DNA of 64,000 nt from the NCBI RefSeq assembly GCF_024223415.1, contig NZ_CP100500.1; one strand, given 5' to 3'. A program made the translations under genes and the position numbers. Origin of the DNA: Escherichia coli (GTDB lineage Bacteria > Pseudomonadota > Gammaproteobacteria > Enterobacterales > Enterobacteriaceae). The notes below the pieces were generated by a model that searched no databases, was not told where the DNA came from, and worked only from the letters and a program-made list of their open reading frames with translations. Shown here piece after piece: positions 11,606 through 12,060 of this stretch (its first letter is position 1; each line of letters begins with the position of its first letter).

Positions 11606-11833
11606 TCACATATTGGTCGCTGCCCGTTGCTGTACGCCGGCGGCGAAAATGATCTCCAGAGCATTCTGATCGATAACACGGGCCAGATTCGCGTTCAGAT
11701 TTTCAGTTTCATTTTCGGTCAGCAGGAAACTGACGGCAAGCCACGTCACCTGCTCCTGAATCATGGCAGGAATTTTGATGCGCTCCTCTTCAGCCAGAGT
11801 ACCGGCAATTTTTCCTGATACCACTGCAATCAT
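11606..11833 (-). CDS. hypothetical small protein
   Basis: 75-aa ORF whose start overlaps the stop of the upstream 76-aa ORF by ATGA. Confidence 0.35.
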   Translation of the reverse strand: MIAVVSGKIAGTLAEEERIKIPAMIQEQVTWLAVSFLLTENETENLNANLARVIDQNALEIIFAAGVQQRAATNM

Positions 11834-12060
11834 TCCTCCCGGAACGCCGCCCGCCAGCGAATATGAAATAACCGGGGTATGCGTTCAGTGATACAGCCAG
11901 CCAGTAAAGCCGGACCGGACAGACACAGCAATATGAGTCCTGCCAGCACAGACGCTGTGCTGGTTAATGCTCTGAACAAAAAGCGAAGAATGGCAAATCC
12001 TGCGATAAGCAGGATCAGCACGCCGACTATCTGTAACATAGTCCCCCTGATAAATATCAT
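11830..12060 (-). CDS. hypothetical small membrane protein
   Basis: 76-aa ORF with two hydrophobic segments, immediately downstream of antigen 43. Confidence 0.35.
   Translation of the reverse strand: MIFIRGTMLQIVGVLILLIAGFAILRFLFRALTSTASVLAGLILLCLSGPALLAGCITERIPRLFHIRWRAAFREE

Follow-up and report, generated by a model that had tools for sequence, protein, structure and literature searches.

Two small ORFs downstream of the antigen 43 gene

The window analysed here, a stretch of 64,000 nucleotides from Escherichia coli (contig NZ_CP100500.1), carries on its minus strand a gene for the autotransporter adhesin antigen 43 and, downstream of it, a pair of small overlapping ORFs. A preliminary description of these ORFs, made from the sequence, had presented them as a 76-aa membrane ORF with two helices and a 75-aa ORF, translationally coupled through an ATGA overlap, and had left the choice between a small membrane module and a gene remnant. 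The ORFs concerned are the following (coordinates are those of the window):

11830..12060, minus strand: ORF1, 76 aa when read from the ATG at 12060, 69 aa from the native ATG at 12039
11606..11833, minus strand: ORF2, 75 aa, corresponding to YeeR residues 723-798 and opening at an internal Met723 codon
12160..15279, minus strand: Ag43/Flu autotransporter adhesin gene, a 1039-aa ORF with ESPR, AIDA, AC_1 and Autotransporter Pfam domains

As a reading of the DNA, most of this description holds. Both ORFs appear in the ORF list with the lengths claimed for them, on the strand of the 1039-aa Ag43 ORF and downstream of it, as had been stated. The four-base overlap is also confirmed: positions 11830-11833 read TCAT on the plus strand and hence ATGA on the minus strand, such that the stop codon of ORF1 overlaps the start codon of ORF2. 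ORF1 does indeed contain two hydrophobic stretches (Kyte-Doolittle 19-residue means of up to 2.74 and 2.23), in keeping with the two helices proposed, and ORF2 contains none above 1.6 on the same scale. The 76-aa length needs correction, however; an ORF of that length exists, but it is the ATG at 12039 that is homologous to the YeeR start codon, and this gives a protein of 69 aa. This ATG has a Shine-Dalgarno-like GGGGGA 4 nt upstream, no such sequence is found upstream of the ATG at 12060, and the 69-aa form is the one called on 239 contigs, with each of the two listed 76-aa sequences occurring on one contig. A GGGAGGA lies directly 5' of the ORF2 ATG. With 101 ORFs of at least 30 aa overlapping the 9 kb around the locus, the size of ORF1 and ORF2 is by itself unremarkable; their homology to YeeR, described below, is far beyond chance.

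Scans of both small proteins against Pfam, NCBIfam and PADLOC gave nothing above noise, the best sub-threshold matches being to holin_2 (E 0.32; 11 bits, cut-off 50) and DUF202 (E 0.21), and no match to a small-protein, holin, toxin or defence family was obtained from these three collections. A search of Rfam with both strands of 10800-12600, at E values up to 1, returned only a chance miRNA match (20.9 bits; gathering score 80). In a scan of 11100-12400, promoter and terminator sites were no more numerous than in shuffled sequence, and none would provide ORF1 or ORF2 with a promoter of its own.

Homology to the two ends of yeeR

When the region is compared by megablast with 5426 complete E. 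coli genomes, the match falls into two blocks. The first comprises the first 357 bases, among them the intergenic region and the agn43 3' end, and matches the 5' end of yeeR; the second comprises the next ~400 bases and matches the 3' end of a long gene annotated as 'hypothetical / YeeR family protein'. In YJ3 (L004) and AHB12 (L005) both blocks lie within one gene of 2517 nt (838 codons), which sits directly after agn43 and before irmA and the DUF905, DUF932, antirestriction and JAB/RadC genes. By blastn, 12300..11844 of the window corresponds to L004 592-1049, and 11851..11462 to L004 3001-3394, the two segments sharing 8 nt in the window.

The protein-level comparison leads to the same place. 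Using the 838-aa and 510-aa YeeR proteins as N-terminal queries, tblastn aligns 12039..11848 with YeeR 1-64 without gaps over 64 aa, at 87.5% identity (E 1e-31), these being residues 8-71 of ORF1 in the 76-aa numbering. On the other side, 11857..11501 aligns with YeeR 715-834 at 82.5% identity over 120 aa (E 3e-58), in a single frame that runs straight through the stop codon at which ORF2 ends. The locus can thus be described in terms of yeeR as follows:

11848..12039, minus strand: yeeR 5' fragment, codons 1-64, encoding the two TM helices of the N-terminal membrane anchor (tblastn)
11486..11857, minus strand: yeeR 3' fragment, codons 715-838, with a one-codon deletion and an internal TGA, the natural TAA stop being kept
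11844..11857, minus strand: deletion junction; ~1960 nt, yeeR codons ~65-714, are absent, with a net frame shift of +1
11606..11608, minus strand: nonsense codon, TGA in place of the TTA for Leu799 of intact genes, a single-base change (alignment with L004, L007 and L008)

Synthesising these findings, we conclude that ORF1 and ORF2 are almost certainly the two ends of one dead yeeR gene, that is, an ordinary pseudogene. The second of the two options in the preliminary description, a gene remnant, is the one that has stood, as in diverged relatives the two frames lie, collinear, within one 838-aa YeeR ORF. Homology to the N-terminus and to the C-terminus of YeeR identifies the locus as a fragment of that family, and so does its position, directly 3' of agn43/flu in a CP4-44-like island; the gene order that follows yeeR in such islands (irmA, DUF905, DUF932, antirestriction, RadC/JAB, DUF987, CbeA/CbtA) is that of the window, except that irmA is deleted here. 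What the locus no longer has is the uninterrupted 838-aa frame of a functional YeeR, which is broken by the 1960-nt frameshifting deletion and by the nonsense codon at 799. Set against full-length YeeR (WP_023149781.1 / WP_001513839.1, 838 aa), the window shares the position after agn43 and keeps both the native start and the natural stop, but is without codons ~65-714, is frameshifted, and carries a further one-codon deletion along with the nonsense codon. Two plus-strand ORFs antisense to the fragments, at 11573..11818 and 11879..12187, were set aside as a side effect of yeeR coding sequence on the minus strand.

The junction itself is placed by the two alignments: window position 11857 pairs with L004 1035 on the left side and with L004 2995 on the right, and because the difference of 1960 is 3x653+1, the internal deletion is frameshifting. 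It lies in a short, imperfect homology, CTGGCTGGCAGGCGT / GTGGTTGGCGGTGTT in the intact gene of L004 and CTGGCGGGCGGCGTT in the window. The parental allele was a divergent one, with 86-92% DNA identity to the common alleles, and since no intact copy of this lineage was found among the complete E. coli genomes, the breakpoints cannot be fixed to the base.

This junction also accounts for the overlap of the two ORFs. ORF1 consists of 64 YeeR codons and, beyond the junction, five out-of-frame residues, AFREE, followed by TGA. Intact genes have GGAATGATT at the same place, and GGA ATG ATT (Gly-Met-Ile, the Met being Met723) is internal to intact yeeR; it is this ATG that the TGA of ORF1 overlaps. 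Because these are internal codons of the intact gene, the ATGA 'coupling' motif was inherited from inside the parent, and the apparent signature of translational coupling between ORF1 and ORF2 is an accident of parental sequence.

The comparison with intact genes shows three events. An internal deletion of ~1960 nt removed yeeR codons ~65-714 and joined the ends out of frame, probably through illegitimate recombination between short similar sequences. The resulting out-of-frame TGA happens to overlap the ancestral Met723 codon, such that an ORF in the original frame opens exactly there. Finally, a TTA to TGA change at codon 799 cut this second ORF short. The products of these steps can be read in the window: ORF2 represents YeeR 723-798 with a one-codon deletion and ends 40 codons short of the natural stop, and that stop, the yeeR TAA, is still present, in frame and aligned, at 11488..11486.

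Two short metagenome contigs from ENA (L007 and L008) bear on the order of the first and last of these steps. Both carry the junction of the window (matches at L007 1318-1871 and L008 2-558) without the nonsense codon, and ORF2 there runs for 115 aa to the natural stop. From the equivalent of window ~11636 onwards both follow the common allele, with L008 running into an apparent irmA start, and they may be either natural recombinants, which would represent a less advanced stage of decay, or assembly chimeras; if they are real, then the deletion preceded both the nonsense mutation and the loss of irmA.

Surrounding genes and other truncated forms of yeeR

Damage in this part of the window is not confined to yeeR, and the features on either side of the remnant are listed here:

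15282..17723: IS66-family element, 2442 bp, with 22-nt inverted repeats at 15282-15303 / 17702-17723 that start GTAAGCG
15319..16857, minus strand: IS66 transposase ORF, 512 aa
12040..12159, minus strand: spacer between flu and yeeR; it contains a GC-rich hairpin (GGTCCCGGTCATCATGATCGGGACC) and is covered by a blastn match (~92% identity)
11402..11462, minus strand: irmA deletion scar, ~60 nt where related islands have ~512 nt that include the 456-nt irmA
11182..11295, minus strand: truncated DUF905 (aec70) gene, with only residues 14-50 of 77 in frame

The Ag43 gene, annotated agn43 in related genomes, stands upstream of yeeR in the flu-yeeR-irmA cluster, which has been reported to be co-transcribed in some strains (PMC9431211, PMC6480617). 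In the window only 2 nt separate the IS66-family element from the Ag43 ATG (15279), upstream of which it lies. Because it abuts the ATG, the native flu RBS, the 5' UTR and the OxyR/Dam phase-variation region are not adjacent to Ag43, and the insertion therefore stands between the native regulatory region and flu, along with any gene transcribed together with flu; the intact-looking 1039-aa Ag43 ORF may either be silent or depend on the IS element for its expression. In strain 135 the Ag43 gene (L002 1-2541) is flagged by PGAP as a pseudogene with an internal stop, whereas the ORF of the window is uninterrupted at 1039 aa.

Between Ag43 and the remnant, the ~92% blastn match, to K-12-type and other islands, extends into agn43 (3' end) on one side and into yeeR (5' end) on the other. 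The intergenic hairpin, at 12100-12135 on the minus strand and ~25 nt past the Ag43 stop, is a perfect 11-bp, GC-rich stem (GGTCCCGGTCA TCA TGATCGGGACC) that is not followed by a T-run; taken as a whole, the flu-yeeR spacer folds with a z-score of only -1.92, which is not exceptional, and no canonical terminator or promoter was found in this intergenic region.

On the far side of the remnant, blastn segments and alignment leave only the start region of irmA (ATGATTCA...), and tblastn for IrmA in the window gave no significant match. The DUF905 gene beyond it is recognisable by tblastn at 73% identity over 37 aa and by a Pfam DUF905 match (E 4e-5) for a 34-aa ORF, with its N-terminal codons in another frame; PGAP calls a 34-aa DUF905 protein in strain 135. 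Three consecutive genes after Ag43 (yeeR, irmA and DUF905) are thus damaged, and the decay is regional. IS insertions and deletions are reported to be frequent in the flu-yeeR region (PMC9431211, PMC6480617). Further on come DUF932, antirestriction, RadC, DUF987, CbeA, CbtA and DUF5983 genes; a 218-aa ORF without a Pfam match lies at 8225-8881 (minus strand), between the DUF987 and CbeA genes.

Other truncated forms of yeeR provide a point of comparison. The yeeR of E. coli K-12 (b2001; CP4-44 prophage; 510 aa) likewise follows flu, is also truncated by deletion, and has an N-terminus homologous to ORF1; it keeps nt 1-1521, with the 3' part lost from ~codon 507 through to yeeS, and one long ORF is left. 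In the window, unlike in K-12, it is the middle of the gene that has been removed, and both ends remain. The literature already records the K-12 gene as truncated, with irmA, aec70 and aec71 missing in K-12 (PMC6480617). Islands of the ST131, Nissle 1917 and 83972 type carry a yeeR pseudogene of 1134 nt, 'missing N-terminus', that keeps nt 1388-2517; this allele stems from an independent deletion next to agn43, by which the 5' 1387 nt are gone, and differs from the window in that irmA and DUF905 are intact.

Distribution of the deletion form and rival readings

The full-length gene of 2517 nt is covered over at least 80% of its length in 1800 of the 5426 complete E. coli genomes, most alleles being 96.7-100% identical to the query allele. 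The two-ORF deletion form was found in nine of the 5426, all 99.9-100% identical, and diverged relatives all have one long ORF or other truncations. Strain 135 carries the same locus, 100% identical over 1301 bases (window 11000-12300), and there the two pieces are the RefSeq pseudogenes KZ312_RS11110 and KZ312_RS11115, called by PGAP as 'missing C-terminus' (12039..11848) and as 'internal stop; missing N-terminus' (11857..11486), respectively. As regards the locus itself, nothing sets these pseudogenes, or their equivalents in eight other complete genomes, apart from the copy in the window. A yeeR remnant is a known kind of feature, its pieces already flagged as pseudogenes in RefSeq, although the record of strain 135 labels both simply as 'hypothetical protein' and makes no link to yeeR.

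In public assemblies the first of the two predicted proteins is found on 239 contigs and the second on 210, from which it follows that the deletion allele persists in a lineage or in a spreading island. Their protein clusters consist entirely of E. coli entries, under the name 'hypothetical protein' or 'membrane protein', and that of ORF2 includes a frameshifted variant of 59 aa. Beyond annotation hygiene the finding matters little, but these two often-deposited 'hypothetical proteins' each represent one half of a decayed yeeR gene, and their labels ought to say so; the entries concerned include A0A0D8VLP2, A0A0D8VGP1 and EFK43260.1, and one 69-aa entry is named 'membrane protein'.

Comparison with the intact genes gives dN/dS ratios of 0.26-0.31 for both ORFs, and of 0.22-0.26 for the 36 codons past the nonsense codon, which lie outside any ORF2 product. 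Because the untranslatable tail has the same ratio, these values reflect the history of the intact ancestor and not current constraint; there is no sign of selection on either ORF product, and we infer that the remnant locus is without a function of its own.

This is not to say that the fragments are necessarily silent. Judging from the sequence, the native start remains intact and may at most give rise to a 69-aa membrane peptide with two helices, and ribosomes may to some extent re-initiate at the ATGA. A reading in which the remnant has acquired a second life would go further: the 69-aa piece would be expressed from its native start as a small protein of the inner membrane, ORF2 would be made by termination-reinitiation at the ATGA, and one or both products would be functional, such that the allele persists. 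The intact native start with its GGGGGA 4 nt upstream, the two clear hydrophobic helices, the GGGAGGA directly before the ORF2 ATG and the presence of the allele on more than 200 contigs are all consistent with this, but we regard it as very unlikely. The copies in complete genomes, at 99.9-100% identity throughout, carry no evolutionary signal of constraint, the tail that cannot be translated shows the same dN/dS as the ORFs, the public variants include the frameshifted 59-aa form of ORF2, and neither product matches a family, domain or defence system in Pfam, NCBIfam or PADLOC. Moreover, the IS66 element at the Ag43 start stands between the unit and the native flu promoter, and the GGAGG before ORF2 stands only ~1 nt from the ATG, too close for normal Shine-Dalgarno spacing. 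A more specific proposal, that the translated 69-aa stump, possibly with a re-initiated 75-aa piece, would act as a small inner-membrane protein that benefits its carriers, strikes us as extremely improbable, even though such a benefit would, if true, explain the occurrence of the deletion allele on more than 200 contigs.

The remaining option of the preliminary description, a genuine two-gene module of a small membrane protein and a soluble partner belonging with antigen 43, draws on the strand shared with Ag43, the ATGA stop-start overlap and the two hydrophobic helices of ORF1, and is refuted, with practically no probability left to it, by the homology to YeeR: relatives have one 838-aa protein of which the two ORFs represent collinear pieces, the overlap is an internal Met-Ile of YeeR, ORF2 ends at a nonsense codon beyond which the frame goes on to the ancestral stop, both pieces are annotated as pseudogenes in RefSeq, and the frames are not conserved as separate genes, the pair being found only in near-identical copies (nine of the 5426 genomes).

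As for the parent, a membrane protein, intact 838-aa YeeR has no relative in the PDB and no NCBIfam model; against Pfam it gives a weak C19orf12-like match (E 0.007, below cut-off), and it has a glycine-zipper-like region at its C-terminus. Residues 410-552 of full-length YeeR (L004 853-3369) show a weak PADLOC match to PDC-M09B, a candidate defence protein (E 1e-5, 22 bits); this part of the gene is deleted in the window. The full-length protein also has a Cys-rich segment.
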